In this document: positions 593 through 48,156 of the stretch, piece by piece | How the letters are laid out: each line of letters starts with the position of its first letter | Position numbering within the stretch: position 1 is the stretch's first letter | NCBI GenBank assembly: GCA_044352715.1 | Contig: JBILDG010000001.1 | Coordinates: forward strand, 1 to 48,156 | Length of the DNA: 48,156 bases | Origin: Chthoniobacterales bacterium | Lineage (GTDB): Bacteria; Verrucomicrobiota; Verrucomicrobiia; Chthoniobacterales; JACTMZ01 | Reading direction: 5' to 3' | Made by a program: the position numbers and the translations under genes | Notes under the pieces: model-generated | What the model saw: the letters and a program-made list of their open reading frames with translations, nothing else | What the model was told of the DNA's origin: nothing | Database searches by the model: none

Positions 593-626
593 GGACGATC
601 CCGCCAAAAATCGGCACGTTTCGGCC
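593..626 (-). promoter_or_regulatory. Bipartite direct-repeat element, copy a
   Basis: The minus strand reads GGCCGAAACGTGC-CGATTTTT-GGCGGGATCGTCC, two 13-nt repeats with a 21-nt offset. After 22 nt comes TACATT (570..565). It lies between the GH78 stop (688) and the sulfatase ATG (481). Confidence 0.6.
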
Positions 627-17902: not shown

Positions 17903-18143
17903 TACTGGACGGCCGGACAAAGCTCCGCACCTGAAATAATCCATATAGGAAATTTCCTTTCTGGCAAGCGGTTAGCTTGGCCAACCCGGCTATTCCAAAA
18001 ACAGCCGCCGGCTACGCGAATCCGGAAAGAAGGACAGCACCGCGGACTGAGACCGCTGAATTTGTCACCATCGGGTTCATGGGACCAAAGAGCACGCATT
18101 CCCAGGCTTCGGAGTGACTGAACTCTCAGAAAGCCTAGGGCGC

Positions 18144-18177
18144 AGAGGATCGCGCTAAAAATCGGCACGTTCCCGCC
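18144..18177 (-). promoter_or_regulatory. Bipartite direct-repeat element, copy b (proximal repeat degenerate)
   Basis: The minus strand reads GGCGGGAACGTGC-CGATTTTT-AGCGCGATCCTCT. The distal half and T-tract match copy a at 19 of 21 positions. No TAnnnT follows at the expected distance. The next start codon (LacI) is at least 200 nt away. Confidence 0.3.
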
Positions 18178-20306: not shown

Positions 20307-20340
20307 TAACGATCCTGCCAAAACCCAGCACGATTGCGCC
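20307..20340 (-). promoter_or_regulatory. Bipartite direct-repeat element, copy e-minus (faces the GH99-like gene)
   Basis: The minus strand reads GGCGCAATCGTGC-TGGGTTTT-GGCAGGATCGTTA. After 22 nt comes TACAGT (20284..20279), then GATCAA, then ATG 20272. Confidence 0.6.
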
Positions 20341-20355
20341 GATTTTTGCCTCATT

Positions 20356-20389
20356 GGCGGAATCGTGCTGAGAAATGGCGCAAATGTTC
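20356..20389 (+). promoter_or_regulatory. Bipartite direct-repeat element, copy e-plus (faces the large GH-like gene)
   Basis: The plus strand reads GGCGGAATCGTGC-TGAGAAAT-GGCGCAAATGTTC. After 23 nt comes TACAAA (20413..20418), and 8 nt later an ATG at 20427 that opens a mini-ORF. The main ATG is at 20474. Confidence 0.45.
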
Positions 20390-20473
20390 CGGCGCCGCTT
20401 GGGCCCCCGTGTTACAAAGAGATCTCATGACCACACCCACCATTTTCACCGGCTGCATCCGGCACCCGAACCC

Positions 20474-23400: not shown

Positions 23401-23557
23401 CCTGACGCGACGCAATACCTTCGGCCCATTGCATCTCACGCCCATCGAACAACCGGCCATCGGTCCCACCCACTTCCGGAGCGAGGGCGACGAGTGGTCC
23501 GATGATTACCAACTCGTGCCTGTCGGACTCGAAAAATCCCCAATCCTCGAATCATGA
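20474..23557 (+). CDS. Large glycoside-hydrolase-like protein, about 1027 aa, no signal peptide (GH106-like is only a guess)
   Basis: Start at MSHRKRG (ATG 20474). The N-terminus reads YRGKPFWSWNGHLDPSELIRQIGIFQEMGMGGYFMHSRTGL...WLYDEDRWPSGSAGG...GIFTDEPH. It shares the motifs GGY, WL.D(D/E)..(W/Y)PSG.AGG and RG.(F/Y)..(D/N)EPH with the gene at 32921..35155. Confidence 0.6.
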   Translation: MSHRKRGVLFAWTEWQNPSAAYRGKPFWSWNGHLDPSELIRQIGIFQEMGMGGYFMHSRTGLQTRYLGPEWFDAINACADAGQARGLESWLYDEDRWPSGSAGGLATKELRHRMKYLRLTVHESGETHNWPAAEHFVAAFSAKVSGLDLGPYRRVECGARAFPGEQLLVFAWEYMREHSFYNDTAYLDTMDPTATENFLRVTHDAYREACGERLGTSIRGIFTDEPHRGFVFCSSHGQPGVPDPGWTTPWTHALPEAFAAAFGHDLIDRLPELFLRSDGQRLSPVKWAYMEICQRLFLENWARPMHERCRDLGLLLTGHVLHENSLAAQAVPCGSMMRYYPYLDYPGIDILGSRNECHWVIKQLSSVARQFERPWMLSELYGCTGWQTDFTDHKRIGDWQALFGINVRCHHLSWYSMAGEAKRDFPASISFQSAWYPEYAAVETYFSRLHVALTAGRPVCDVLVINPVESTWAQIHVNWATWLQATDPDVEALEKTYATVFAALAGAQIDFDYGDEAHLAEHGSVDATKATLRLGAMRYRVVVVAGAETLRGSTLRLLQEFRRAGGMVIFAGAPPTHLDALPSPEPAEFAINGPTALIDGPALAAMVREHSPAARQLTLGEEGAGLFCQMRTDGNTFTAVLLNSSDTRNYDTVTLRWHHSGPVTELDALTGQAVAVETIPEDGGILRWTTSFRPLQERIFVCGAAVPDAKPAAMTAIGRTEVLAGDFAYTLDEPNIAVLDTAEFSLDGGDWEAAQEILRVEKSLSERLGIPLRGGQMVQPWAREESTTNGGTQLTLRFRFEVEHLPKSPVQLALEQPHEFSITLNGKNIPAPSGDAWFIDPCLCTVTLPPDALQTGTNILELQCRYHEGIDLEAVYLLGSFGVRPGPGSRVTLTELPPRLGVGDWTRCGLPFYSGRIRLQLPVGSARGLALSPQGAATLVARNPANGKSQILPWAPFACDLEGLVDDQSMVEVEWVLTRRNTFGPLHLTPIEQPAIGPTHFRSEGDEWSDDYQLVPVGLEKSPILES

Positions 23558-31425: not shown

Positions 31426-31459
31426 GCACGATCCAGCCAAAAAGGAGCACGATTTCGCC
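31426..31459 (-). promoter_or_regulatory. Bipartite direct-repeat element, copy f
   Basis: The minus strand reads GGCGAAATCGTGC-TCCTTTTT-GGCTGGATCGTGC. After 23 nt comes TTTAGT (31402..31397), and 9 nt later ATG 31387. Confidence 0.6.
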
Positions 31460-31481: not shown

Positions 31482-32924
31482 TCATGCTCGCGTTCTTCCG
31501 CCGACCAGATCGATCGGTCGCCCCGGAAATCCCGCTTCCCGCGTGTCCTCCGGCCGACGGCCGTCTGGCATGCGATAGCGCTCCGCCAGCGAATCCACAT
31601 CGACACCCCCCGGATCCCCGTAGTGGTCCATCCATTGCTGCGTGAGTTTTTCCATCCGCTCCTGCAAGGCGGTGTGCGCAGGGTCGCCGTAAAGATTGCG
31701 CAGTTGAAATGGATCCCCTTCCCGCGCGTAAAGCGCACGGACCGGAACCTTGCGCAACACCGCGCGGCCATTTTCGTCGCGCTGCCAGTGCGCCAACTCG
31801 CCGCGGCCGTAGCTGTGCTCGCGGGTGTAGACGCCATTCCAGGAAGGCTGGTGGAAAAAGAGGGGCACGGATTCCACGGCATCATCGTCGTGCTCGCGGA
31901 TGGCCCGTGAGAGATCGCGGCCCTCGCAGGTTGCCGGCACGGAGACCCCCAGCAAACCAAGCAGGGTGGGCATTAGATCCAGCGTCCCGACCAGCAGATC
32001 GCTCATCCGGCCGCGAGCTTCGCCCGGCAGATGCACGAGGAGCGGGACGCGCACGGAGGTGTCCTCGGGATGATCCTTCGAGATGGTGTAACCGTAGGAG
32101 TGTAAGTTGTCGCCGTGATCCGAAGTAAAGACAATGAGCGTATTGTCATAGTGACCGCGCGCCTTGAGTTGGTCGATGAGACGCCCGAAGGCGCGGTCGA
32201 TGCCGCTGCACATCGCGTAGTAGCCATGGTAGGCGCGTCGGATTTCCGGGGTATCCTCCGCGCTGGGACGCAGACGGATGGTCGCCGGATCATAGAGATC
32301 CATCAGATCCTGCTTCGTGCCGTAATCGAAGGTCATGGTTTCCGGGTCGAAGCCGACATCGTGCGGTGGATGCCACGAGACAAAGAGCGCGAAGGGTTCG
32401 TCCGCCCGGCAGGTATCGAGAAATTGCACCGCCTGCCGCGCCTGCCCGTCTACCTCCCATTCGTCGAAGAAAACTTTCAGTCCTTCCTTGTCCCAGTAGT
32501 AGCAATGCCCCGGACGGTAATCCATGTGGCAGTTGTTGCTCAGGAAGGTTTCGTCGAACCCGTGCCGTAGTGGACCCGGCGGCACCGGCCGGTCGCGGTT
32601 GCCGCCGAGCAGATGCCATTTGCCGACATAGGCGGTGCGGTAACCGGCCGCACCCAAGGCCTGCGCAAACGTCGTGCCGTTGTGGGCCAGCAGCGGAAGA
32701 TCATTGTGCAGCGCGCCGTGGCGGAGCGGATGCTGTCCGGTCAGCAGCATGCCGCGGTAAGGGGTGCAGACCGGACTGCTCGAAATGCAATGGTCGAACC
32801 GGATGCTCTCCGAGGCGAAGGCGTCGAGGCGCGGCGTTTTGATGTCCGCGTTGCCATAGCAACCGAGCATGTCCCGCGACTGCTGGTCGGTGAAAACGAA
32901 AAGAAGATTGGGACGCGCGTTCAC
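31482..32924 (-). CDS. S1-family sulfatase without signal peptide (predicted cytoplasmic)
   Basis: (GTG)NARPNLLFVFTDQQSRDMLG starts directly in the core. The motif is SPVCTPYRGMLLTGQHP. A GTGA overlap joins it to the upstream gene stop (32921..32924). Confidence 0.85.
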   Translation of the reverse strand: MNARPNLLFVFTDQQSRDMLGCYGNADIKTPRLDAFASESIRFDHCISSSPVCTPYRGMLLTGQHPLRHGALHNDLPLLAHNGTTFAQALGAAGYRTAYVGKWHLLGGNRDRPVPPGPLRHGFDETFLSNNCHMDYRPGHCYYWDKEGLKVFFDEWEVDGQARQAVQFLDTCRADEPFALFVSWHPPHDVGFDPETMTFDYGTKQDLMDLYDPATIRLRPSAEDTPEIRRAYHGYYAMCSGIDRAFGRLIDQLKARGHYDNTLIVFTSDHGDNLHSYGYTISKDHPEDTSVRVPLLVHLPGEARGRMSDLLVGTLDLMPTLLGLLGVSVPATCEGRDLSRAIREHDDDAVESVPLFFHQPSWNGVYTREHSYGRGELAHWQRDENGRAVLRKVPVRALYAREGDPFQLRNLYGDPAHTALQERMEKLTQQWMDHYGDPGGVDVDSLAERYRMPDGRRPEDTREAGFPGRPIDLVGGRTRA

Positions 32925-35191: not shown

Positions 35192-35239
35192 TGACGATTC
35201 CGCCAATTTTCAGCACGATTCGGCACCAACGATTCCGCC
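35192..35239 (-). promoter_or_regulatory. Bipartite direct-repeat element, copy c, plus an extra upstream repeat
   Basis: The minus strand at 35225..35192 reads TGCCGAATCGTGC-TGAAAATT-GGCGGAATCGTCA. A third repeat, GGCGGAATCGTTGG, lies at 35239..35226. After 24 nt comes TACTTT, then TACCCG, then ATG 35155. Confidence 0.6.
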
Positions 35240-35265: not shown

Positions 35266-35838
35266 TTAAGACGAAGGCGTGACTTCGATGGTGACGTTGC
35301 CGATGCCGGGGTATCCCTTGACCGCCCAAAACTGGATGGTCACCCACGTGCCGGCCGGCACCTTGGTCGCCACCAGGCGCTGGGCGCCGGCGGCTTGGAA
35401 GCTCTGCTTGGCCAGAACGGGATCCCCCCCGTTCGCGCGGGCGTTGACGATCGCCGCTCCCATCCAGAACTCCTCCTCCCCGAAGCCAACAGTGTCAAAG
35501 GTCAGCGTGACATCCGACATCTCGGCCAAAACGCCGAGTTCCTGCTTGAAGGCGTAGAACTCCGGCTTGAGCCGACTTAGCACGCGCAGGTTGGCTGCGA
35601 TACCGGCCGCCCCCATCTTGCGCACGGTGTAAAAGTCACTGTCTTGATCCTGCGGCGGGGCTGCCGTCCAGCCTGTCGGAACACCAGAGTACCAACCCGG
35701 ATGCTGGAGGGGGGACAAACCATCCATGTTGCTGAAGTCACCGTTGATCACGGCCAGCGCGTCGTCCTCTGCCGCGGTGGCAGAGACTAACGCAAGAACA
35801 CCAAGAGCAGGGACAAGGAGGAGGGAACGAATGCTCAT
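35266..35838 (-). CDS. Small secreted protein, CBM/DUF642-like jelly-roll (family guess)
   Basis: 190 aa. The signal peptide is MSIRSLLLVPALGVLALVSATAA. It is followed by VINGDFSNMDG...GW...VTLTFDTVGFG...WVTIQFWAV...NVTIEV. Confidence 0.6.
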   Translation of the reverse strand: MSIRSLLLVPALGVLALVSATAAEDDALAVINGDFSNMDGLSPLQHPGWYSGVPTGWTAAPPQDQDSDFYTVRKMGAAGIAANLRVLSRLKPEFYAFKQELGVLAEMSDVTLTFDTVGFGEEEFWMGAAIVNARANGGDPVLAKQSFQAAGAQRLVATKVPAGTWVTIQFWAVKGYPGIGNVTIEVTPSS

Positions 35839-35876: not shown

Positions 35877-35910
35877 GCACGATTCCGCCAAAATCCCGCA
35901 CGTTACCGCC
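35877..35910 (-). promoter_or_regulatory. Bipartite direct-repeat element, copy d (best match to the consensus)
   Basis: The minus strand reads GGCGGTAACGTGC-GGGATTTT-GGCGGAATCGTGC. After 24 nt comes TAGATT (35852..35847), and 8 nt later ATG 35838. It begins 10 nt downstream of the AraC gene stop. Confidence 0.6.
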
Positions 35911-35920
35911 TGACCCCCCC

Positions 35921-36889
35921 CTATCCGTTGTCCCGCATCCGCCCGCCGGCCTGGAACTGACGCGGCGAGACACCCAGAACACGGCGGAATTGCCGGGCGA
36001 AGTAGCTGCTGTCATTGAAGCCGCACTCGAAAGCCGCCTCAGTCACACTCATGTCGCTGGACTGAAGTAGCTTCGCCCCTTTGGCGATGCGCAACCTCTG
36101 AAGATAAGACAGCGGGCTTTCGTTCTTCACCTGACTGAAAAAGCGGTAGAAATTGCGGTCGGACATTCCCACCATTTTCGCCAACTCGGGCAATTTGAGA
36201 TCCTCCGCAAAATGGCTCTCCATGTAGGCAATGGCACGCCCGATTTTCATGATGCGCTCGGATTCAACGGTCGGCTGGGTGTTGTAGGCGCGGGAGAGCA
36301 AGCCGACCATGGCCATGAAATGCGCCACGGCCATAAAACGATGCCCCGTAGCATCTTTGCGCAGCGCTTGGCTGGTGAGGGTTCGGTGGCGCTCCTCGAA
36401 AGCAACCGGACGGACCCGTGGGGCATCCCCGTAGAGTTCTTTTTCCATGGCCTCGGCCAACTCCCTGGCACGAGCCAAGTCGCGGATTCCAAGCGTCAAG
36501 TGTCTCTCAAATTGACCCTCACGTCGCATAGCCGGCTCGACGACAAAGAGCGATTGGTAACCCGGCAACCCTGCAACATCGAAACGCACTTTCTGCAATA
36601 GCGATGGCTCGTAGATAATATTGATCAGCCCGAGTTCCACCGTGTCTCGGTAGCCATGGGGACGCCCCCCGTGATGCACGAAGACGTCACCCGCTTTGAG
36701 CGGAAACTCCTCTTTGCCGACCACATTGACACCGCGCCCGTGCGAGATGATGACGATCTCCGAAAAATCGTGGACGTGCTGCGGATAGTTCGGGTGGTTG
36801 TCGAGAACGTAGACAGCCAAAGGGAAGTTGCGGTCGGCAAAAACCAGTTCCCTTTCGAATTTGACCGGCTTGGGCGAGCGACGAGGCAT
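35921..36889 (-). CDS. AraC/XylS-family transcriptional regulator with N-terminal cupin domain
   Basis: The cupin block is HVHDFSEIVIISHGRGVNVVGKEEFPLKAGDVFVHHGG. The C-terminal double HTH is SVTEAAFECGFNDSSYFARQFRRVLGVSPRQF. Start taken at MPRRSPKP (ATG 36889), because 36890..36973 is AT-rich. The ORF-track start at 36973 remains possible. Confidence 0.85.
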   Translation of the reverse strand: MPRRSPKPVKFERELVFADRNFPLAVYVLDNHPNYPQHVHDFSEIVIISHGRGVNVVGKEEFPLKAGDVFVHHGGRPHGYRDTVELGLINIIYEPSLLQKVRFDVAGLPGYQSLFVVEPAMRREGQFERHLTLGIRDLARARELAEAMEKELYGDAPRVRPVAFEERHRTLTSQALRKDATGHRFMAVAHFMAMVGLLSRAYNTQPTVESERIMKIGRAIAYMESHFAEDLKLPELAKMVGMSDRNFYRFFSQVKNESPLSYLQRLRIAKGAKLLQSSDMSVTEAAFECGFNDSSYFARQFRRVLGVSPRQFQAGGRMRDNG

Positions 36890-37012
36890 GAAACCACTTA
36901 CGATTTCATCGCAGGACTGCAAGTCTCGATTGCTTTTTGCTGTATGGCGCAAGTAATTAGCCGCAGCCTGCACAAACTCTTTTTTGACATCATTTACGTA
37001 AAGATACGCAAC

Positions 37013-37714
37013 TTACCTGCTAACTATATCTTCCAAACGCTTGAAGGAGGATTGCAGGTGATTATTGAGAGCTTTACGCGCTTGCTTGGCATCACCTCGG
37101 TCAAGAGCCGCGCAAATTGCTCTGTGCTCTTCCAATACACGTCGAACAAAATGGCTGTCGATATAAGTTTCGCGTGCGTATTTTAAACCCACCCCCAGTA
37201 AAAGACCGCGCATAATCGACGCGTAAAGCTTGTGACCAGACTCTTGCACTAAAGTAAGGTGAAAAGAGAGATCAGCTTTACCAAAAGAAGCCAAATTGGA
37301 TTTTTTGCTATCCATAGCAGCCATTTTTTTTCTCAACTTAATCCGTGATGCTGACTTGTTTGCAGATGCCAAAACAGCGACGCACTCCGACTCAATAAAC
37401 TGACGCAGGTCCATCAACTGCCGGTATGTGCCATGGTCACGCCGGAGTGACGCATAAACACCGATGGATGCGGAAAGGGCCGATGATCCCTCATCCTCAG
37501 CGACGTAGCTACCGCTTCCCCTTCGGCTTGCAACCAACCCTCGTGACTTGAGCGCTTCCAGCGCCTCACGGACGGCTGCCCTGCTCAGACCGTGGACTGC
37601 CGCCAGAGTTTTTTCACCAGGCAGCTTAGTGCCCGGCGCCAACTTTCCCGAAAGAATCGAGCGCTCTAAATGCGCAATGAGTGGGCGGCATATCTTGGAA
37701 CACTTTTTGTTCAC
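37013..37714 (-). CDS. GntR-family (FadR/FCD-type) transcriptional regulator
   Basis: The winged HTH is LPGEKTLAAVHGLSRAAVREALEALKSRGLVASRRGSGSYV. An all-helical FCD-like C-terminus follows. The start is GTG. The gene is markedly less GC-rich than its neighbours. Confidence 0.85.
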   Translation of the reverse strand: MNKKCSKICRPLIAHLERSILSGKLAPGTKLPGEKTLAAVHGLSRAAVREALEALKSRGLVASRRGSGSYVAEDEGSSALSASIGVYASLRRDHGTYRQLMDLRQFIESECVAVLASANKSASRIKLRKKMAAMDSKKSNLASFGKADLSFHLTLVQESGHKLYASIMRGLLLGVGLKYARETYIDSHFVRRVLEEHRAICAALDRGDAKQARKALNNHLQSSFKRLEDIVSR

Positions 37715-37754
37715 AGAAGACCAATTAAAGCAAAATGATTTGATTGACTACCGC

Positions 37755-37773
37755 AAAGTTGTCAGACAACTTT
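37755..37773. promoter_or_regulatory. Candidate GntR operator: perfect 19-bp palindrome AAAGTTGTC-A-GACAACTTT
   Basis: It lies in the 90-nt divergent region between the GntR gene (start 37714) and the SDR gene (ATG 37805). The GT-N-AC core fits the general GntR/FadR operator architecture. Roughly 0.2 such palindromes are expected by chance in 48 kb. Confidence 0.6.
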
Positions 37774-37804
37774 TATTCTAATTACTCCCCTCATCGAAAA
37801 CGCC

Positions 37805-38566
37805 ATGCTTCTGCAAAACAAAGTCATTTTTCTCACGGGTGGATCGGCTGGGATCGGCCTTGAATGCGCCAAGGCTTACGCCGCAGAAGGGGCCCATGTC
37901 GTTATCGCCGCACTCGATAGTGAAGCCTCGATCCGAGAGGCAGCCAAACTTCCCGGGAAGCACCTCGGGATAGGTTGCGATGTTTCGCAAGGTGTCGAGG
38001 TGGAGAAAGCCATCGCTTTTGCTTTGGCAAAGTTCGGCAAGTTGGACGCCATCCATAACAACGCCGGCGTTGCATCCCCTTCTAAGCCACTGCATGAGAC
38101 GACGGAAGAAGAGTGGAACACGCTAATGGACACGAATCTCAAGAGTGTTTATTGGACCACACGCTACGGCGTGGCCGCGCTTCGGGAAAGCAAGGGCAGC
38201 ATTCTCAACACGAGCAGCCTGGTGGGCGTCATCGGCCAAAGCATCCATGCCGCGTACACTGCCACCAAAGGCGGGATGAACGTATTGACCAAATCCATGG
38301 CGCTGGATTACGCCGCCGATGGCATCCGGGTGAACGCAGTCTGCCCGGCCGGTGTCTGGACTCCAATGCTGCGGCAGTGGGCTGCGGAGCAACCGGACAC
38401 CACAGCCATCGAGACATATCTCGACGATATCCACCCGCTCGGCTACTGCCCAGAGGGCGATGTCATTGCCGATGCCTGCGTGTTTCTGCTTTCCAACAAA
38501 GCCCGTTTTATCACCGGCCATATCATGCATGTGAGTGGCGGTGCGGAAATCGGCTATCGCCGCTGA
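37805..38566 (+). CDS. Short-chain dehydrogenase/reductase (candidate L-fucose or 2-keto-3-deoxy-L-fuconate dehydrogenase)
   Basis: The Rossmann motif is FLTGGSAGIGLECAK and the catalytic motif is YTATKGG (Y-x-x-x-K). It lies 5 nt upstream of fucD. The substrate assignment comes from context only. Confidence 0.8.
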   Translation: MLLQNKVIFLTGGSAGIGLECAKAYAAEGAHVVIAALDSEASIREAAKLPGKHLGIGCDVSQGVEVEKAIAFALAKFGKLDAIHNNAGVASPSKPLHETTEEEWNTLMDTNLKSVYWTTRYGVAALRESKGSILNTSSLVGVIGQSIHAAYTATKGGMNVLTKSMALDYAADGIRVNAVCPAGVWTPMLRQWAAEQPDTTAIETYLDDIHPLGYCPEGDVIADACVFLLSNKARFITGHIMHVSGGAEIGYRR

Positions 38567-38571
38567 TTCTC

Positions 38572-39810
38572 ATGACCATTACCGCAGTCAAGATTCACGA
38601 CCTTCGTTTTCCCTTGGGTCCGAGCGCCGGCAGCGACGCCATCCACCGCGACCCGGTGTATTCCTACGCGGTGACCGAGCTGATCACCTCCGACGGACTC
38701 TCGGGCAACGGTTTTGCTTTCACTTTGGGAGAAGGCAACGACTTGGTTTGCCAGGCCGCGGAATTCCTCGCTTCCAGTCTTATCGGAAAACCCATCGATG
38801 AAATCATGGCCGACTTCGGACAATGGCAATGCCACGCGTCGAATGAGCAGCAATTCCGCTGGCTCGGCCCCCACAAGGGCGTTGTGCATCTTGCTTTGGC
38901 GTCTGTCACCAATGCTTGCTGGGATCTCTGGGCGCGCCGCAAAGGCCTGCCCCTCTGGAAACTTCTGTTGGAGCTTTCTTCCGACGACCTGCTGGCGACA
39001 TTGGATTTTTCCTATGTCGATGACGTATTGACCCGACAGCCGGCCACAGAACTTCTGGCAATGGAATATCCATCGCGCAGCCAGCGCATGGGAATCACCC
39101 AATCGGGCTATCCGGGCTACGACACCTCGATCGGTTGGTTCAACTACACCGACGAGCAAGTCGCAGCCAATGTGGCGAAATCCGCCGACGCGGGCTTTAC
39201 CGCCATGAAGCTCAAAGTCGGATCCCCCGACTTGGAGCGCGACATCCGCCGAACCCGACTGGTTCGCAACGCGGCCGGTCCGTCTGCCCGCATCATGGTG
39301 GATGCCAACCAGCAATGGACGATTGCCCAGACATTGGAGTTCGCGCGTGCAACCGAAGATCTCGACTTGTTTTGGATCGAGGAGCCCACCCACCCCGATG
39401 ACGTTCTTGGTCACCAAGCCATTGCCAAGGAGATTGCCCCCGTGAAAGTCGCGGCCGGCGAGCATGTACCCAACCGCGTGGTTTTTAAAAACTATCTTCA
39501 AGCGAACGCCATGGCTATCTGCCAAGTAGACGCCGTGCGGGTGGCCGGGGTCAGCGAATTTCTCGTTGTGAGCCTTCTGGCCCGAAAGTTTGGCGTTCCT
39601 GTCATTCCACACGTTGGTGATATGGGCCAACTTCACCAGCACCTTGTAATCTTCAACCATATCGCCCTGAATCACGAGGCGATCTTCTTGGAACACATCC
39701 CACACCTCAAAGACCGATTCCACGAGCCGGCAATGGTCTCCAGAGGGTTTTACCAGACTCCGAATTTGCCCGGCTCGTCTTGCACCTTGATTGCTGCAAC
39801 TAAGAAATAA
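38572..39810 (+). CDS. fucD: L-fuconate dehydratase (enolase superfamily, ENOSF1/FucD type)
   Basis: Start at MTITAVKIHDLRFPLG (ATG 38572). The ORF-track extension overlaps the SDR gene in another frame. LGPHKGVVHLALASVTNACWDLWARRKGLPLWKLLLELSSDDLLATLDFSYVDDVLT closely parallels the conserved FucD/ENOSF1 block. MVDANQQW and FWIEEP are enolase-superfamily metal-ligand motifs. Confidence 0.85.
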   Translation: MTITAVKIHDLRFPLGPSAGSDAIHRDPVYSYAVTELITSDGLSGNGFAFTLGEGNDLVCQAAEFLASSLIGKPIDEIMADFGQWQCHASNEQQFRWLGPHKGVVHLALASVTNACWDLWARRKGLPLWKLLLELSSDDLLATLDFSYVDDVLTRQPATELLAMEYPSRSQRMGITQSGYPGYDTSIGWFNYTDEQVAANVAKSADAGFTAMKLKVGSPDLERDIRRTRLVRNAAGPSARIMVDANQQWTIAQTLEFARATEDLDLFWIEEPTHPDDVLGHQAIAKEIAPVKVAAGEHVPNRVVFKNYLQANAMAICQVDAVRVAGVSEFLVVSLLARKFGVPVIPHVGDMGQLHQHLVIFNHIALNHEAIFLEHIPHLKDRFHEPAMVSRGFYQTPNLPGSSCTLIAATKK

Positions 39811-39909
39811 GTTGGCTCTTAGAAGCCCGCGATCTCAGCTGTAGCAATCTTTCAATGAGAGGAAACGGGGCTAAACAAGGCGAGTACAACGCCAAGCCGA
39901 TCATTTTTA

Positions 39910-40638
39910 CTACTTTGATTCATTTGCATCCCCGCCCTTGATGAGTCCGATGGCCGCCTCCGCGAGCCTCTGGCCAAAAATGCGGTAGCCTTCCGCAGTG
40001 AAGTGAAGATCGTTGACCATCTTCTCGCCCTTCCTACCCACGCCGTCGTTGAGGTCATCGGTCTCAACCAATGCACTGCGCGGTGTTTCCTCGACAAATT
40101 TTGTTTGGATTTCACGGATCATGGTCCAATGAGGACACTTCACGTTGGTCAGGTCGTGGTCGCTGAGCCGACCGATGACAATGTTGATGTCCTGTCGTCC
40201 CATATCGACCGAAAGTTGGGCGATCAGGCCTCGCAAACTTTCGCCATAGACCTCCCCATGGCCCTCGCGGGCATCTCGCTCGCCCTGCATCCAGAGGAAA
40301 GTAAACGTTTCGAGCTTGGTGTCACCGGCAGCCTCACGAATTTTGTCGAGCAAGACGTCGTAGAGATCACCATTACCAGCCGGGCGCTCTCCTTTCTTGG
40401 GCTGCCAGTTTTTGTACCAGCGACGGATGGGTTGTCCGCCTTGCGCATTTCGAACGACGATGACGTTTCCGGCACCAAATTCCTTTTCCAAAGTCGGCGT
40501 GAACGACTCATCCGGACGTACACCGGCCATGTTTGATTGTCCGGAAAGGATAAACAGGTGTTTGCCGGTCTCTGCTGCGGAGGTCCAGGGGAGCGCAAGG
40601 AAGCTGATGGCATTGATTAGGCAGGCAATTTTATTCAT
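39910..40638 (-). CDS. SASA-family carbohydrate esterase (secreted)
   Basis: The signal peptide is MNKIACLINAISFLALPWTSAA. Motifs are LFILSGQSNMAG, FLWMQGERDA and LHFTAEGYRIFGQRLA. Confidence 0.8.
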   Translation of the reverse strand: MNKIACLINAISFLALPWTSAAETGKHLFILSGQSNMAGVRPDESFTPTLEKEFGAGNVIVVRNAQGGQPIRRWYKNWQPKKGERPAGNGDLYDVLLDKIREAAGDTKLETFTFLWMQGERDAREGHGEVYGESLRGLIAQLSVDMGRQDINIVIGRLSDHDLTNVKCPHWTMIREIQTKFVEETPRSALVETDDLNDGVGRKGEKMVNDLHFTAEGYRIFGQRLAEAAIGLIKGGDANESK

Positions 40639-40666
40639 TTTCGGGCATTTTTTTCGTGGCTGGCTT

Positions 40667-41869
40667 TCAGTTCAGCAAAAGCTGGAAAATATAAAGTGCT
40701 GTTCCCTTGCTTTTGGGGTTGTGCTCCTTGGCCAGACGCACTCGGACGACGTGGCGGCCGGGCTGAAGACTTTCCGCAAGGATTACAGCCCATGGAAGAT
40801 AAAGCTCCCGGCTCCACTTGGTGAAGGTGTCTATTTGTGTGAAAGGACTTCCGTCACACGAGACTTCCAGCATTCCGCTGTCAGGCCCAGAGCCGATGAG
40901 CAAACCGGCCGCCGTGCCGTTGAATGCAAATTCGAATTCCGCACCGGGCTGCGTTGCGACAAGAGCTGGCACATCGACAAAACCCGGTCGCGTTTTGGCG
41001 CGAATCTCGGGGGTCCATTGACGCACAAAACGAAATCCCTCGATGAGCCTTGCATCCTCCAAGTTGCCGAATCTGCCGCGATCGTAGCTTGCGGCATCCA
41101 AGTGAGATGCGGGCATTGTGTGCGGCGCGGGGTTGACAACCGGACCGCTCCAAGCGGATTCCAGCATGTGCTGGATACTTCGGGCGTAAAGCTCGTGTCC
41201 GAAAGGTGACGGGTGCAGGTCGCGGAAGTCATCTTCCCACGTGAATTCGCCGGCCTTGATCCGATCAGTGACTTCCTTGGAAAGGTTCAGTGAAGGATTG
41301 CCGTAGAACTGCGCCACCCTCTCGTGCATGGCAATGGATACGGGAACGCGCCCCTCGCTGTAGTCCGCCATGTGCTCGGGCATGACGAAGTGCATCTGGA
41401 CGATATCCGTGGAGGGATTCACCGAGCGGGCGTGGCGAACCACACCCTCCATGCCACGAAGTATGCGCTCCGGGTATTCCGAGGTGTTGCTGGTGTCGTT
41501 GACGGCGGCTTCCACGAAAAGCAAATCGACCGGACCTTTCGAGAGAACATCACGCTCCAAGCGAAAAGCGTGGGGAACAGACCCGAGCGAGCCGATGCCC
41601 GCACTGATGAATTCAAACTTGGTATCCGGAAATTTCTTTCGCAGATAGTCCATGACGAGATCCCGCCAACCCGAGCTTTGCGTGATCGAACCGCCTAAAA
41701 AAGCGACACGCCCGAATTTCTCCCGCTCGAATTTGGCGCGGGAGTTGGCCAACCCATTGCGCAACTCAAAGTAACCGTCCTGGCTTGGCAACGGAGGCTG
41801 GAGATTTTCGGCGCAAACTATCCGAGCGAGACAAGCAAGATGACTCATGGTGATGAGGAGGAGTTTCAT
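40667..41869 (-). CDS. SGNH/GDSL-type hydrolase with C-terminal beta-sandwich-like extension (secreted)
   Basis: Block I is VAFLGGSITQ, block II is SAGIGSLGS and block III is FVEAAVNDT. A signal peptide is present. Confidence 0.75.
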   Translation of the reverse strand: MKLLLITMSHLACLARIVCAENLQPPLPSQDGYFELRNGLANSRAKFEREKFGRVAFLGGSITQSSGWRDLVMDYLRKKFPDTKFEFISAGIGSLGSVPHAFRLERDVLSKGPVDLLFVEAAVNDTSNTSEYPERILRGMEGVVRHARSVNPSTDIVQMHFVMPEHMADYSEGRVPVSIAMHERVAQFYGNPSLNLSKEVTDRIKAGEFTWEDDFRDLHPSPFGHELYARSIQHMLESAWSGPVVNPAPHTMPASHLDAASYDRGRFGNLEDARLIEGFRFVRQWTPEIRAKTRPGFVDVPALVATQPGAEFEFAFNGTAAGLLIGSGPDSGMLEVSCDGSPFTQIDTFTKWSRELYLPWAVILAESLQPGRHVVRVRLAKEHNPKSKGTALYIFQLLLN

Positions 41870-41872
41870 TTT

Positions 41873-43351
41873 TTACTCGAGCGAAAGCAGCTCCCCCTCC
41901 AGCAATATCGCGCCGAGATATGCCTCATTGCGCTGATACTTGCCGGGATCATCCGCGAAATCGGATGCCGCGGACTTGTCCGGTGGATTCTCATCGAGGG
42001 TCAATTTGACCGAGTGAATTCCTTCCTCCATGCGGGGCAGCAAGAAATACTGGTGACGCAGCCCGCTGCTGTATTTCTGGAAGCGGCTGACGTTAAAAGG
42101 ATCGCCTCCGTCGACCGAGACCTTCACTTGGCCGGCAAAGGGACCACCGACATCGAAGAACCCGAGCACACTCCCTCTAAACCGGACTGTGAGGGAAGAG
42201 CCGGGCGTTTTTGTTCCTAGCAAGCGCGGGAAGTGCAGCTTGATTCTTTCGAGGTTGCGCCCCTGCTCGGGAAAGTCTGCACTGTAGCCTTCGGCATCGG
42301 GATCCATCTCATACCACTGCCAGTCCCCTTCGGTCTTCATTTTGACATCCTTCAGGTCGACAAGTTTGGCGTTCTCCCAATTTTCCGGATCGACCGGCAC
42401 CGGAAGCTCTTTCGGCTCGGGAGGCGCCGCAGCAGCCTCCATCTTCAGCAAAGCTCGGACAACCGCTCCGGCATTGAGCTGGGCACCGTCGTTGTTTGGG
42501 TGCACGCCATCGGAGGAAAAGACGACTTTTCCAGCCACCGGCTGGGCGGACTTGAACGCCAACCGCTCCTGCTTGAGCAGCACGGCAATCTGGCAACCGA
42601 GGTTAATGGTCGGAATCTGGTAGCGGTCGGCCAGCTTTTCCTTTGTCACAACATGGGAAGAAAGCACGGGAGGCTCGGCAAGGAGCCCCTGCAGATGCCA
42701 GTCCGCAACCGTGTAAACAAAGCAGATATCAGTGGTCGGATTCGCCTTGAGGGTCTTGCGGATGATTCCCTCAACCCCTTTGAGGTAGCCATCTTTGTGG
42801 CCGCCATCACCACCGTTGACCACAAACTCCACAAAAAGCAGGTCGGGCCTGTAGGCGAGCACATCTTTCTCCAACCGCGCCACGCCAAGGTCGGCCCCGG
42901 TGCCGCTGAGGCCGGCATTGATCTCCTTGATCACCGCCTTGGGATAACGGCGGCGCAGCCAGTCGGTGGTTCGCGAACGCCAGCCACCCTCGGCCTGGGT
43001 GATGCTGCCGCCGAGATAAGCGACTGCAACCGGTTCGCCGGCGTGCAGTTTGGCCATCGTGTTGTTGATGCCACCGCGAACTTTGCATTCGTGCGGATGC
43101 GCGAAATCGAGTTGGTAATCATTGTCCCTGAGCGATCGCTCTTGTTTCTCGTCATCAGGCAAGACGGTAAAATCCATACCGGCTTTGGACTGCGGCTCGG
43201 CTCCTCGTTCGCCCGCGGAAGGCACTGGCGATGACGCCACCGCATCGGCCATCGTCACTGACGCACAGAGGGTCAGCGTAGCGAGCAAGCCTCTGCGTAA
43301 CTTACGATCAAAAACGGTCGGACTTTTAATTCTCGGCAGGATTGACGGCAT
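41873..43351 (-). CDS. SGNH/GDSL-type hydrolase, tandem paralog of 40667..41869 (secreted)
   Basis: Motifs are [25 protein letters not shown] and [11 protein letters not shown]. Start chosen at MPSILPRIK...[14 protein letters not shown] (ATG 43351), which overlaps the sulfatase 3' end by 26 nt. The start is uncertain. Confidence 0.75.
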
Positions 43352-44753
43352 TCTCAGGATTGATTTTGGGCGGAAGTTGTCCGCGAAACTTCTCCAGTTT
43401 CTCACGCATGCGATCCGCAATCTCGGGGTGTTTGGACGTCAGATCCGTGGCTTCGCCAACGTCTTCCGCCAAATTGGTCAGCCACTGTTGTTTGCGGTAA
43501 GTTCGCAACTTCCAGTCCCCTTCACGGATGGCAGCATGATCATTGAGCACCCAGTAAAGGGTGCGCGGCGCGCCCCCATTCTTTTTCTCGCCGATCTGGG
43601 GCAGAAGATTCACCCCATCGAGGACAGTTCCTTTGGGAGCCTCGGCTCCGGCCGCAGCACAGAGCGTCGGATAAAGATCCAACGTGCTCACGGGCTGCCG
43701 GTAAAACCGGCCGGTCGGCCACCGGGCCGGCCATGTCATTGTCAAAGGAACCCGAATACCGCCCTCCAGCAACGTGGATTTACGGCCGCTCAGCGGACCG
43801 GTGCTGCCGAGCATTTCCTTGGGCCACTCATCCGGCCACCCAGCGTTGAATGCAAAGGTCGGGCCGTTGTCGCTGGTGAAAACAACAAGCGTGTTCTCCT
43901 TGATACCGTTTCTTTCCAATGCCGCCAGCACGCGACCGACATTCTCGTCAAGTGCGAGAACCATCGCTCCGTAAAAACGCAAAGCCTCGCTGGGCAGATG
44001 CTCTACGTCCTTTTGGTGTGTCTTCTTGGCCTCCAGCGGACTGTGGGGCGCATTGAAGGCCAGATAGAGGAAAAAGGGTTTGTCCGCATGGCGTTCGATA
44101 AACTCCGCAGCCTGCCGCCCCAGACGGTCGGTCAAATATTCATCGCCGGCTTTCTTTGGTCCCCAAGCCGGTGCTTGTTTGCTGTTGGAAACAGCCTTTA
44201 GCTCATCCACCCCGACATAACGCCCTGTCTCATCGGGCCAATAGTCAGCTCCGAAATGCATGACGGACATGGACTCGTCGAAAGTTGTTTTGGGATAGCC
44301 GGGCAGATTGTATTTGCCGACAATTCCCGTGACATAGCCAGCCGAACCCAAAGTCTGGTTGAGCAACTTTTGTGAAGGCGGGATACGCTTGTCTCCTCCG
44401 GCAATCTCCGACCAACAGTCGCGATTATCATGCACACCAAGTCGTTGCTGGTACATTCCGGTGAGCAGTCCGTAGCGACTCGGACCGCACATGGGGGCCG
44501 TCACGTAAGCATCGGTAAAAGCAATCCCCTCGGCCGCAAGGCGATCGATGTTAGGCGTGGGTACCAGCGGCTTGGCTCCATCGTAGTAGCCGACGTCCCC
44601 ATAACCCAAGTCATCGGCAATGATGAGAACGATGTTGGGTGTGCCCGCTTCCGAGGAGGTTGACGATGGCTGGTCGGACCGCGCCGGCAACAGTGACAGC
44701 GAAAATGCGATACCAAGCAGAAAGACCGGGCGCTTTATGGTTTTCATGTTCAT
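43326..44753 (-). CDS. S1-family sulfatase (secreted)
   Basis: Start at [26 protein letters not shown] (ATG 44753 or 44747). Core [18 protein letters not shown] and motif [16 protein letters not shown]. Confidence 0.88.
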
Positions 44754-44772
44754 AAAAAGAAACTCAGGTCGC

Positions 44773-46866
44773 TTATTTGACCGCATCGGGTAACCGTGAT
44801 GTCACCATCTTGGCCGTAGCCACCCTCGGATTTCCCGCGCGAAGGTCGGCGGGATCGAAGATCACCTGCAGCTCGTTCGTTGGCTGGAGCAACGCTGGGT
44901 CCAAGGAAATTTCGACGGGGCGGTGGAAGTCCTTGATACCTTGCGAAAAAGTCACGTCGACACCCGGCAACTGCTGGCCGTTCAGCTTGACGACCGGGTT
45001 CTTGGTGAACCCTCCGTCGCGCGCCAGAGAGAGCCAAAGTTTCGCGTGAACCAACTTCCCATCCCGCGACGGTAGTTCGACCGTCATGGTGCAAGCACCA
45101 TCCGCATCGGGTTCCAGCAGGGTCTCGATAGCGTAATCGATTGATTCATTCACAGTCCGCTGCACCGGTGCCGCCGAAAGCCGCAAGCGCACCAGCGCAG
45201 TTTCTTCACCCGCCAATTCGATGGGTCCAAGGGGGTTGATATCACGATAACTGGCGTCAATGCGCAAGGCGCCCTCCAAATCCGGCGAGGCATGATCCGT
45301 CGGCACCGGTCCCTCCCAGAGCAAACGCTTGATCTCGGCTTGTCTGATCGTGATTTCGTTCCCTTTCGTATCTTTGCCAGTCGCGATGTCGAGTTTTACG
45401 GCTTGGTTCCCCCCGGGATACCCGTTCCCGTTGTGGAGAAGGATGTACAGCGTGCTTCCATCCAAGAAAGCGCGGGAACTGATATCGCGGGCGCCGTCAT
45501 CCCCCCGATCGGTCCACTGCGCTCGTACCCTCACCCCTTCCAGATCCCGGAAGAACTGGTAAAACTCGCGGAATCTTGTGGGTTGCACGCCGGTGTCCTC
45601 CGGGGCCGAGGGCCGGTTGTAAACCGCTTGCCCGCGCTTGGCCCCGTAATCGCGGCACGATTCCCCAGTGATGAAAGGAACCGCCAGTTCGACTTCAGGA
45701 CGTTCCATAAACGTCATCCAAAGCCGTGTCACCGTGGTCATGTAGAGCCATGGCTTGAAGTCGTTCTGCCAAGGTCCCAGCTGCGGCTCGATGCCCTGGC
45801 GGCCGAACTCCGAGATAATCATCGGTTTTGGATCTTCGTTCCAAACTCTCCGATGATGCGCAGCGAACAGATCGAGCAGTCCATCGGCCCGGCCGTAGTC
45901 CCAGACCGTGCCGACACCAGTGCGCTGGGTGGCATGCAAACTGGGGTTGTCTTGCTTCTTGTAAAGCGGATCGCCCATGAGCCGCTCGTCCGTGTAAGCC
46001 CAGTAACCCTTGCTGTAGAGATGCAGATCGTAGGCACCGACATCTTGGCCGGCCTTCTCGATAAAGGGACGCTCAAAAGAGTCCCATCGCTTCCAATCGC
46101 CCAGCGGGTAAGGCCAGGCACTGCACGGCCCTGCCACTTTGATCTCCGGATGCGCGGCCGCCATGGCTTTGGCCATGACACTGCTGTATTCGGCAAATTC
46201 CTCACCACCCCAGTCAGCTCCGGGCTCATTGAGCGTGGTAAACCATGTCGGAATGGAAGCTCCCGCCGATTTCAATTCGCCGAAAAAATTTACCACCAGC
46301 GCGGAAAACTCGGCATATCTGTCCTGAGCCAGAATCCCTCTCTTTCCATCGCGGCGCATGGCTTCCGGAAATGCCGCGTTCAACGCCAACGCATGCTTGA
46401 GGCCGGGAAACCGGGCAGCGGCTTGTTGATAGACAGCGGACCACTTTGAGGTTTCGTGTTTCACCAAGCTCTGGAAATCGTTGCCTGAAAAATCCGACCG
46501 TTCCGGGCGCTCTTGATTACCTCCCGATCTCCCGCTCTGCCCTCCCACCGGATCGTCGTAAGTGTGGCGCTTGTCATATGACAGGTATAAACCCGTGCCC
46601 CGTCCCGGCCTTGCGCCGATGGAAGCAAGGTCGCGATCACGCTCCTCGCTGAACAACCCGGGCATGTGATAGCTGCGGAAGTAGCGGTCACGATCCAGCT
46701 CCCCGATATTAAAAGGCCCCAGGTTGATCTCCCGCCGCACCCCCGGCTCGACCAAAAGTTTGTGCACCGTATTGTCTGCCGCCGCCCGGCCCGATGTCGC
46801 CGTCCACGGACAACACGTCAAAAAAAGTAAAACAACGGCTTGGGAGAACGAGACACCGAACTTCAT
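44773..46866 (-). CDS. Secreted clan GH-A (beta/alpha)8 glycoside hydrolase; family unassigned
   Basis: A signal peptide is present. [12 protein letters not shown] is an NEP acid/base-type motif, and [11 protein letters not shown] is a nucleophile-type motif at the appropriate spacing. The gene is 697 aa. Confidence 0.65.
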
Positions 46867-47882
46867 TTCAACGGAACCCGCAGATTGAAAGACTTCGCGT
46901 TGTTGCCCTCGTAGGCCGAAAGTTGCAAAGCTACCGGGCGCCCCTCGTCGAAAATCATCCTCGGCATCTCCAGCCTCTCATAGTGGCAGCGCCGACCATC
47001 TTCCCAGTCCAGATAGAACGGAGTGACCAGGGGATCCGCGGCGAGGTGCCACGCAAGGCCGTCGTTCGACTCCAACATTAGGAGCGCGGGAACAATCGAC
47101 GTCAGACCTTCGCCGTGATCTTTGACAATAGCGTAGTATTTGCCATCCATCGTCCACATGCAGTAGTCGTCGAGCGGAAAATCGGTCTTTGTTCCGGTGA
47201 GCAACGATTCGGCCAGCTTTGCAAAGGGGCCTTGGGGATTATCGGAGACAAAAGTGTGATGCTCCACCCGTCCACCACGCGGCGGCACGCCCCGCCGAGC
47301 GGTTTTTACGACCACTTGCCAGCGCCCGTCGAGGCGCCGGAAAATGAACGGAGTCGTGGTCATGAGATAATCCGCCTCCGGCTCGAAGAGCGGAGTCGGT
47401 CGCACCGTCCATTCGCCCAGCGGATCCCTTGTGTGCGCCAACCAAACCCTTTGGTTGTTGCGATGCACCCACCATTTCTCGTTCGACATGGAAATCTCGT
47501 CCAACCCGGGAGGGTGACTTTCCGACCATGGCCCGTTGTTTCCCATGAAGAGCAGCCAATAATCAGCGCCATCGCGGACCATCATCGGGTTGTGCTGGAC
47601 CGGAGGTGCGCCCTCGCCTCCAATGAAAAGCATTTTGACCGGCCGGTATGGACCGAAGCATGTCTCGGAAACAGCCAGTCCGATTCTCGAGTGTGTCGTC
47701 CACGCATCGAATCCGCAGGCCAATGGCCAGCAGGAATAAATGAGAAACCATCTTCCGTCCGGCAGCTTTTCAATCGTGCCACACCACACATAGTGGTCGG
47801 ACAACGAAAACACACAGTTCTCAAACGGCACGCCAAGGCTTTGCTTAATGCTGGCACCGGACATTTTGGTAGGACTACTCAT
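46863..47882 (-). CDS. Beta-propeller glycoside-hydrolase-like protein (GH43/GH117/GH130-like guess), no signal peptide
   Basis: Start at MSSPTKMSG (ATG 47882). ATGA overlaps occur at both ends (47879..47882 and 46863..46866). Repeated W/G/D-rich blade-like segments occur (DGRWFLIYSCW, DGADYWLLFMGNNGPW, DGRWQVVVK, DGKYYAIVKDHG). The product call is weak. Confidence 0.5.
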   Translation of the reverse strand: MSSPTKMSGASIKQSLGVPFENCVFSLSDHYVWCGTIEKLPDGRWFLIYSCWPLACGFDAWTTHSRIGLAVSETCFGPYRPVKMLFIGGEGAPPVQHNPMMVRDGADYWLLFMGNNGPWSESHPPGLDEISMSNEKWWVHRNNQRVWLAHTRDPLGEWTVRPTPLFEPEADYLMTTTPFIFRRLDGRWQVVVKTARRGVPPRGGRVEHHTFVSDNPQGPFAKLAESLLTGTKTDFPLDDYCMWTMDGKYYAIVKDHGEGLTSIVPALLMLESNDGLAWHLAADPLVTPFYLDWEDGRRCHYERLEMPRMIFDEGRPVALQLSAYEGNNAKSFNLRVPLK

Positions 47883-48156
47883 AAAATTTCCTCGGACTCC
47901 ACTTCCCAGACGGCGGACGTAAGACGGCCACCATCCGGCAGGGCCACGCGGACCCCGCCCGACAAAGCCTCGGGGGGGATTTCGACATCGAGGCATCCGT
48001 GGTAATCAGTGACACTTACCGAAAAAGGATGAGCCACGCTCTGCGAAGGACGACCGCCCAAAGCGAGCGAAATGCCGTCTGGAAATCCGCCATCCCGCGC
48101 TAACCCGAGACGTAAACGCACGTTTGCACCGGCAGGAACGTCACGCGGAGGGGCAA
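47879..48156 (-). CDS. C-terminal fragment of an unidentified protein (partial; continues beyond the window end)
   Basis: The frame is open from the window edge: ...APPRDVPAGANVRLRLGLARDGGFPDGISLALGGRPSQSVAHPFSVSVTDYHGCLDVEIPPEALSGGVRVALPDGGRLTSAVWEVESEEIL*. Its stop overlaps the next ATG (ATGA). The GTG at 48121 in the ORF track is probably an internal Val. Confidence 0.5.
   Translation of the reverse strand, partial: APPRDVPAGANVRLRLGLARDGGFPDGISLALGGRPSQSVAHPFSVSVTDYHGCLDVEIPPEALSGGVRVALPDGGRLTSAVWEVESEEIL

Follow-up and report, generated by a model that had tools for sequence, protein, structure and literature searches.

A candidate AraC/XylS-family regulator and its predicted 34-bp direct-repeat operator in a sulfatase-rich glycan locus of freshwater Chthoniobacterales

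The sites of AraC are direct repeats 4 base pairs (bp) apart that partly overlap the −35 region, and with half-sites of 17 bp this gap gives a centre-to-centre spacing of 21 bp (PMC11983282). At the Pm promoter, the site of XylS is made of two directly repeated 15-bp sequences; within each, box A and box B are separated by 6 bp, and two recognition helices read them (PMC5481539). The sites of RhaS and RhaR are inverted repeats of 17-bp half-sites lying 16-17 bp apart (PMC11983282, PMC3870299). For AraC-family rhamnose regulators of Bacillales, Bacteroides, and Enterococcus, comparative genomics predicts direct repeats with a 21-bp period (PMC3870299), and the Bacteroides thetaiotaomicron rhamnose activator of this kind has experimental support (PMC3870299, Rodionova et al. 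2013). Here we compare with these systems a locus on contig JBILDG010000001.1 of a Chthoniobacterales metagenome-assembled genome (GCA_044352715.1), where a 34-bp element built as a direct repeat stands before genes for sulfatases and rhamnosidase-type enzymes and beside a gene of the AraC/XylS family at 35921-36889. All positions refer to a stretch of 48,156 nucleotides (nt), positions 1 to 48,156 of that contig, which we call the window. We consider it probable that this gene encodes the cognate factor of the element, a sugar-responsive AraC/XylS-family activator whose operator would be the 34-bp sequence, and the seven similar promoters of the surrounding sulfatase and rhamnosidase genes would very probably be switched by it.

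The element consists of two 14-bp half-sites, T-GGC-nnR-A-W-CGTGC, in direct repeat with a 21-bp period. When read toward the gene that follows, the 44 distinct copies collected from 8 genomes can be aligned to GGCGGAATCGTGCTGAAnTTTGGCGGGATCGTCC with no gaps, and the information (about 42 bits in total) lies in the half-site sequence at positions 0-13 and again at 21-34, with TGGC at 0-3 and 21-24 and A-CGT at 7-11 and 28-32. Each half-site holds two conserved boxes, TGGC and A-W-CGTGC, roughly one helical turn apart with low-information positions between them, TGGC and CGTGC being separated by 5 bp. The 21-bp periodicity that the first-pass annotation of this DNA had described is far from what chance would give, as the two-half-site pattern with at most 3 mismatches matches 4 times in the window against 0.00 expected from 100 shuffles. 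Weight matrix, mismatch scan and profile each find seven copies in the window, and the other 298 contigs (1.96 Mb) of the 2.0-Mb assembly hold no convincing copy. Searches across genomes used a 40-position, sequence-only profile of the element (R1) in place of a looser pattern, ACGWTNNNGCC-N10-ACGWTNNNGCC with at most 1 mismatch, which was dropped after a run over 41 genomes because in-frame coding matches swamped most of them. The regulator gene and the seven copies, with the candidate −10 hexamers and the genes or short open reading frames (ORFs) that the copies are predicted to drive, are as follows.

35921-36889, minus strand: AraC/XylS-family regulator, 322 amino acids, N-terminal cupin (AraC_binding) and C-terminal double helix-turn-helix (HTH).
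593-626, minus strand: copy a, best by profile; candidate −10 TACATT at 570-565; predicted to drive a mini-ORF (ATG ATG at 561-556), then a sulfatase (ATG 481).
18144-18177, minus strand: copy b, weakest (33 bits), no clear TAnnnT; 200 nt upstream of the LacI-family gene 16850-17944.
20307-20340, minus strand: copy e-minus, 15 nt from e-plus and back to back with it; candidate −10 TACAGT at 20284-20279; predicted to drive a WbsX-like gene (ATG 20272).
20356-20389, plus strand: copy e-plus; candidate −10 TACAAA at 20413-20418; predicted to drive a mini-ORF (ATG 20427), a GH106-like gene (20474-23557) and two sulfatases.
31426-31459, minus strand: copy f; candidate −10 TTTAGT at 31402-31397; predicted to drive a sulfatase (ATG 31387), an MFS transporter and a second sulfatase.
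35192-35225, minus strand: copy c; candidate −10 TACTTT at 35167-35162; predicted to drive a GH106-like gene (ATG 35155) and the sulfatase at 31482-32924.
35877-35910, minus strand: copy d, GCACGATTCCGCC-N8-GCACGTTACCGCC; candidate −10 TAGATT at 35852-35847; predicted to drive the gene of a 190-amino-acid secreted protein (ATG 35838).

All seven copies point toward the next gene. The regulator gene does end 10 nt from copy d, as first annotated, its stop codon (35921-35923) being followed by a gap at 35911-35920. The accompanying statement that copy d is the one closest to the consensus needs correction, since copy a has 3 mismatches to the 34-nt consensus against 7 for copy d and a profile score of 39.0 against 34.6 bits; what distinguishes copy d is the most similar pair of half-sites (11/13), with zero mismatches to GCACGWTWCCGCC. 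Orthologous copies of copy c are kept in two related genomes (G005 and G017) and at locus L066. A third half-site-like sequence, CAACGATTCCGCC, lies at 35227-35239, 14 nt past the distal half-site of copy c and outside the 21-bp register.

The placement of the element relative to predicted −10 hexamers, another point of the first-pass annotation, recurs across genomes. Of 43 copies taken from 8 genomes, 27 have a TAnnnT hexamer that starts 22-24 nt past the element; at any other offset up to 80 nt such a hexamer occurs 0 or 1 times. If this hexamer is taken as −12 to −7, then the half-sites fall at about −69 to −56 and −48 to −35, and with the spacing seen in those 27 of 43 copies the element would end at about −35 to −37. 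The aligned copies show no −35 consensus past the element; what is conserved there is a G three nt beyond it (about −33), in 42 of the 44. Because the hexamer stands at a fixed spacing and the −35 consensus is lacking, the predicted layout is that of an activator-dependent promoter. For four of the copies (c, d, e-minus, and f) the main ATG comes 6-9 nt after the hexamer, so the predicted mRNAs would be leaderless or nearly so. At copies a and e-plus, short ORFs (556-478 and 20427-20477) begin a few nt past the hexamer and run into the start of the main gene, which they overlap at their ends.

A 34-nt sequence repeated across intergenic regions might be no transcription-factor site at all, and could instead be a promoter element of an alternative sigma factor or a dispersed repeat resembling repetitive extragenic palindromes (REP) or miniature inverted-repeat transposable elements (MITE). 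The usual distance between a −35 element and the −10 is 16-19 nt, and the proximal repeat, which ends 22-24 nt before the −10-like hexamer, is too far away for that role; the element is also a direct repeat of a two-box unit. Every copy faces a gene at a fixed distance, the rest of the genome has no copy, and the element lacks an inverted terminal structure. It is also conserved at orthologous positions while the flanks diverge: in alignments of orthologous promoters the invariant columns are confined to the element and the −10 region, and the upstream flanks cannot be aligned. We therefore rejected both a sigma-factor −35 box and a dispersed repeat on spacing, orientation and distribution, and regard an explanation of this type as very improbable.

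The protein that we propose as the cognate factor starts at ATG 36889, a choice with which the ortholog alignment agrees. Pfam matches HTH_18 (E 1.4e-24, residues 236-313), HTH_AraC (E 9e-20, in 2 stretches), AraC_binding (E 4.9e-10, residues 33-150), and also Cupin_2. The protein has the AraC/XylS-family feature of a C-terminal portion of about 100 amino acids with two HTH motifs, and it has a cupin-type N-terminal ligand-binding and dimerisation domain as in the sugar-responsive subgroup. In comparison with PDB structures, residues 24-114 match the N-terminal domain of RhaR (5u93, E 2.4e-11) and residues 215-319 match the DNA-binding domains of AdpA, AraC, RamA, SoxS, and Rob. The best full-length named family in NCBIfam is RhaS (127.1 bits over residues 17-315, against an equivalog cut-off of 288); the RhaR models give 76.6-89 bits, short of their cut-offs of 363-525, and the AraC model gives 63.9 bits against 208. 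By these measures RhaS and RhaR are the closest named relatives, and the regulator is an ortholog of neither, because the scores lie below the cut-offs and because RhaS and RhaR use inverted repeats. A six-frame search of the 2.0-Mb assembly with PF12833 returned 15 AraC-family HTH matches, of which the window's contig has a single one, and no other AraC-family gene turned up when the rest of the window's ORFs were scanned with Pfam, in keeping with the earlier statement that the window has only one. No paralog similar to the regulator at E <= 1e-20 occurs elsewhere in this genome.

Set beside the described systems, the pair recalls AraC at araI1-araI2 of Escherichia coli araBAD and XylS at Pm of the Pseudomonas putida TOL plasmid, and the geometry that the first-pass annotation had cited for these two agrees with the literature (PMC11983282, PMC5481539). 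Like AraC, the regulator combines a cupin sensor and dimerisation domain with a double-HTH DNA-binding domain; the two direct half-sites are spaced by 21 bp, with the proximal one predicted, from the candidate hexamers, to reach the −35 region; and the predicted targets are sugar-utilisation genes adjoining the regulator's own gene. Unlike the AraC case, clear similarity between the two proteins is limited to the DNA-binding domain, the half-site reads T-GGC-nnR-AWCGTGC where that of AraC reads TAGC-N7-TCCATA, neither a distal O2-type site nor a looping arrangement is seen, and several target promoters appear leaderless or nearly so. The resemblance to Pm lies in the two homologous direct repeats of two boxes each (box A of XylS being 4 nt long, with box B about 6 bp past it, where here TGGC and CGTGC are 5 bp apart) and in a proximal site predicted to abut the polymerase site, whereas the box sequences differ, the sensor is a sugar-type cupin rather than the benzoate sensor of XylS, and the regulon consists of glycan-degrading genes. 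At the level of sequence, the site has the features of an activator site of the araI1-I2 or Pm type. With E. coli RhaS and RhaR the regulator shares its best full-length named similarity, a RhaR-type sensor domain, and rhamnosidase-type enzymes among the predicted targets. The case is of the same kind as the predicted direct-repeat rhamnose regulators of Bacteroides, Bacillales, and Enterococcus, which are likewise lineage-specific AraC-family proteins associated with rhamnose-related genes and 21-bp-period direct repeats by genome comparison; it differs in that the proteins are not orthologous, the motif sequence is another, and the setting is an uncultured freshwater lineage, the Chthoniobacterales, with sulfatase-rich glycan genes rather than a monosaccharide catabolic pathway.

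Gene and element are also connected by their distribution. The first-pass annotation had suggested a check on the co-occurrence of regulator orthologs with the motif, and we ran it over 31 species genomes of the family, all of one genus, with the motif called by profile R1.

G000 (the genome of the window): 7 motif matches; full ortholog, the window's own gene.
G001: 9 motif matches; full ortholog.
G004: 8 motif matches; ortholog not detected (contig break).
G005: 8 motif matches; full ortholog.
G012: 3 motif matches; full ortholog.
G014: 2 motif matches; N-terminal ortholog fragments only.
G017: 6 motif matches; full ortholog.
G022: 3 motif matches; full ortholog.
Other 23 genomes: 0 motif matches; no ortholog.

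The pair goes together across the set: the motif is present in 8 of the 31 genomes, a full ortholog in 6 of these 8, and the orthologs in related genomes are 69-91% identical to the window's protein. The two apparent exceptions both trace to contig breaks. In G014, two N-terminal fragments, 88% and 85% identical, stand at contig ends. In G004, contig C87 starts with the last 61 codons of a GH106-like gene whose remainder is absent from the 78%-complete assembly, and that gene adjoins the regulator in G000 and G017. Because the contig breaks inside the regulator's neighbor and the rest of the neighbor is missing too, the contig structure marks the G004 exception as an assembly gap. A plain Fisher test on counts of 7/1/0/23 gives about 3e-6, a value that overstates independence because the genomes are related and the motif and the gene share one island.

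The same test bears on the other regulators encoded here. The window has three, the AraC-family gene, a LacI-family gene (16850-17944) and a GntR/FCD-family gene (37013-37714), and either of the latter two might be supposed to bind the element, being encoded in the same window and, for LacI, lying downstream of copy b. None of the 7 other motif-bearing genomes, however, has an ortholog of either, and the closest relative of the GntR protein (60%) is found in G007, which lacks the motif. Both families also typically bind palindromes, such as the 20-bp palindromes of LacI-family rhamnose regulators (PMC3870299), and each of the two genes has a candidate palindrome of its own, at 17941-17964 for LacI and at 37755-37773 for GntR. 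On phyletic pattern and on these palindromes we rejected both as cognate factors, and we find the idea that either binds the element scarcely credible. No transcription factor occurs among the genes without window homologs on the long contigs that carry the motif in G005 (37 kb) and in G001 (29 kb); the products of these genes are efflux components, DUF1800/DUF1501, PATR, restriction-modification, and Piwi proteins. Beside the motif island of G001 (locus L046, contig C43, 10540-19155), HsdM and HsdR of a type I restriction-modification system flank a gene for a 766-amino-acid Piwi-domain protein, prokaryotic Argonaute-like.

Adjacency provides further support for the AraC-family gene. In a scan of one genome per species, all 7 of the 7 public loci with an ortholog at least 69% identical have a motif copy 25-140 nt past the regulator stop and aimed at the next gene, and two of these loci (78% and 77% identity) come from outside the 31-genome set. 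That next gene is the 190-amino-acid protein in G000 and G017, GH106-like in G005, G001, L066, and L067, and WbsX-like in G012 and G022. By comparison, 73 loci with homologs of at most 40% identity, together about 1.2 Mb, contain zero motif copies. Orthologs of at least 77% identity share the recognition-helix segments SDRNFYRFF and DSSYFARQF unchanged; at 70% the segments are almost the same, and in a 42% homolog whose locus has no motif they differ. The helix changes in the 70% orthologs (SDRN to SERN, NDSS to SDGS) show no clear base-specific correlation with motif variants among 3-4 sites per genome.

The two loci with these 70%-identical orthologs, L051 (G012, contig C5, 14326-17170) and L052 (G022, contig C95, 3630-7125), share the order motif, N_methyl (prepilin-like), p190-like, AraC, motif, WbsX-like. 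The regulator there appears to sit inside a motif-driven operon, so that G012 and G022 may have positive autoregulation, with the regulator activating the operon that encodes it, unlike the arrangement in the window.

Several observations weigh against assigning the element to this regulator. A further 14 AraC-family genes lie outside the window, and the assembly is 83% complete. The region 5' of the regulator gene itself (36890-37012) has no motif in this genome, the scan returning half of one half-site and nothing more beside the ATG. G004 formally carries the motif without the regulator. Regulator and motif sit on the same genomic island, so that their co-occurrence is in part that of the whole island, and the number of independent gains or losses behind the 8 positive genomes may be small. 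The sites of RhaS and RhaR are inverted repeats, unlike the direct repeat with a 21-bp period found here. Finally, the sole RNA run that shares words with the region, a metatranscriptome, consists of short 90-95% fragments from relatives, with no usable 5' ends.

If the element were instead the operator of a regulator encoded outside the window, either an AraC paralog or a direct-repeat response regulator, then the neighboring AraC gene would control something else. Such an arrangement would draw on the 14 of 15 AraC-family HTH matches that lie elsewhere in the assembly, on the incompleteness of the genome, and on the 8 matches in G004 without a detected ortholog, and the OmpR/PhoB and DeoR types also use direct repeats, with a period of 10-11 bp for the DeoR type (PMC3870299). 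A genus-wide factor would, however, be expected to have sites beyond the island, and none were found; the motif is limited to the island that carries this regulator, and the 23 motif-less genomes have no ortholog. A motif copy adjoins the ortholog in 7 of 7 loci despite rearranged neighbors, the G004 exception is a contig break, and no other paralog in this genome resembles the regulator at E <= 1e-20. We judge control from outside the window unlikely, and most of the remaining doubt concerns a regulator encoded elsewhere in this incomplete genome. The caveat of the first-pass annotation that another regulator outside the window could be responsible thus still stands in principle, while the rivals within the window fail on co-occurrence, and the link that it had proposed between this gene and the element has gained support from co-occurrence, from adjacency, and from the failure of the LacI and GntR genes in the same test.

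If the AraC-family gene is the cognate factor, then its product would dimerise through the cupin domain, and each C-terminal double HTH would read one 14-bp half-site, one recognition helix contacting TGGC and the second contacting CGTGC, roughly a helical turn farther on. Because the half-sites are direct repeats 21 bp apart, both monomers would bind from one side of the helix, covering about −69 to −56 and −48 to −35, and the promoter-proximal monomer, abutting the polymerase site, would recruit RNA polymerase by class II activation, as at araBAD and Pm. The predicted dependence on bound activator follows from the presence of a TAnnnT −10 and the absence of a −35 consensus. A sugar bound in the cupin domain would control activation, and the regulon would comprise the local sulfatase, GH106-like, WbsX-like, and MFS genes together with the 190-amino-acid secreted protein, the back-to-back copies at 20307-20389 accommodating two dimers that serve two divergent promoters. 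In this scheme we infer binding, activation rather than repression, the identity of the effector, and the transcription starts. Our guess for the effector is L-rhamnose or a rhamnose-containing breakdown product, because the sensor domain is RhaS/RhaR-like and the predicted targets include rhamnosidase-type (GH106-like) enzymes. A more elaborate picture, in which a RhaS/RhaR-like sensor has acquired AraC/XylS-type direct-repeat geometry and switches on a whole sulfatase/GH106 regulon through one 34-bp operator at activator-dependent promoters, with several mRNAs leaderless or led by mini-ORFs and with autoregulation in some species, is offered tentatively, as a possibility that we hold to be somewhat doubtful in its entirety.

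The window as a whole is a sulfatase-rich glycan locus of freshwater Chthoniobacterales, whose genes also encode GH78, GH106-like rhamnosidase-type and WbsX-like proteins, MFS_2 transporters, SASA and GDSL esterases, and PEP-CTERM and N_methyl proteins. The gene behind copy d is the following.

35266-35838, minus strand: 190-amino-acid signal-peptide protein.

This protein has no Pfam or NCBIfam match, and it is, on the predicted promoters, a conserved component of the regulon without a family assignment; at least 3 paralogs are clustered near the regulator in G012 and G022.

At 17941-17964 an imperfect palindrome of 24 bp, CCAGAAAGGAAA/TTTCCTATATGG, overlaps the start codon of the LacI-family gene and is a candidate auto-operator of that protein. 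The position of copy b, 200 nt upstream of the LacI start, suggests that the AraC-type factor may drive this LacI-family repressor too. Where the GntR/FCD gene diverges from the SDR and MR_MLE genes, the DNA between them has a perfect palindrome, AAAGTTGTC-n-GACAACTTT, at 37755-37773, likely a GntR operator independent of the 34-bp element; the MR_MLE genes beside it are fuconate- or rhamnonate-dehydratase-like. Across 37000-48156 the third-position G+C is 0.50-0.68, against 0.72-0.81 to the left of the AraC gene, and no element copy occurs; this segment may form a module of its own, acquired or regulated separately.

Verrucomicrobiota have a major part in the breakdown of sulfated glycans, both in lakes and in the ocean. 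The SusCD and hybrid-sensor logic of Bacteroidota is missing from their glycan loci, and to our knowledge almost nothing is known of how these loci are switched on. Full-text literature on Verrucomicrobia, AraC, sulfatase, and promoter motifs yielded no description of this regulator-motif pair. As a mechanism, AraC-type activation is textbook material, so the locus holds little surprise for biology in general. What the locus offers is a handle on glycan-locus regulation in freshwater Verrucomicrobiota, in the form of a concrete predicted regulator-operator pair comprising a 322-amino-acid protein, a 34-bp site and seven promoters. The 40-position profile marks the predicted regulon in related genomes, with no false matches in 23 genomes, and profile and pair together provide a route to co-regulated enzymes and to the inducing sugar in organisms that have not yet been grown. 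If a RhaS/RhaR-like sensor does govern a direct-repeat regulon here, this order would have its first defined regulator-operator pair for a glycan locus, and the motif could delimit sulfated-rhamnan (or related) regulons directly in lake metagenomes.

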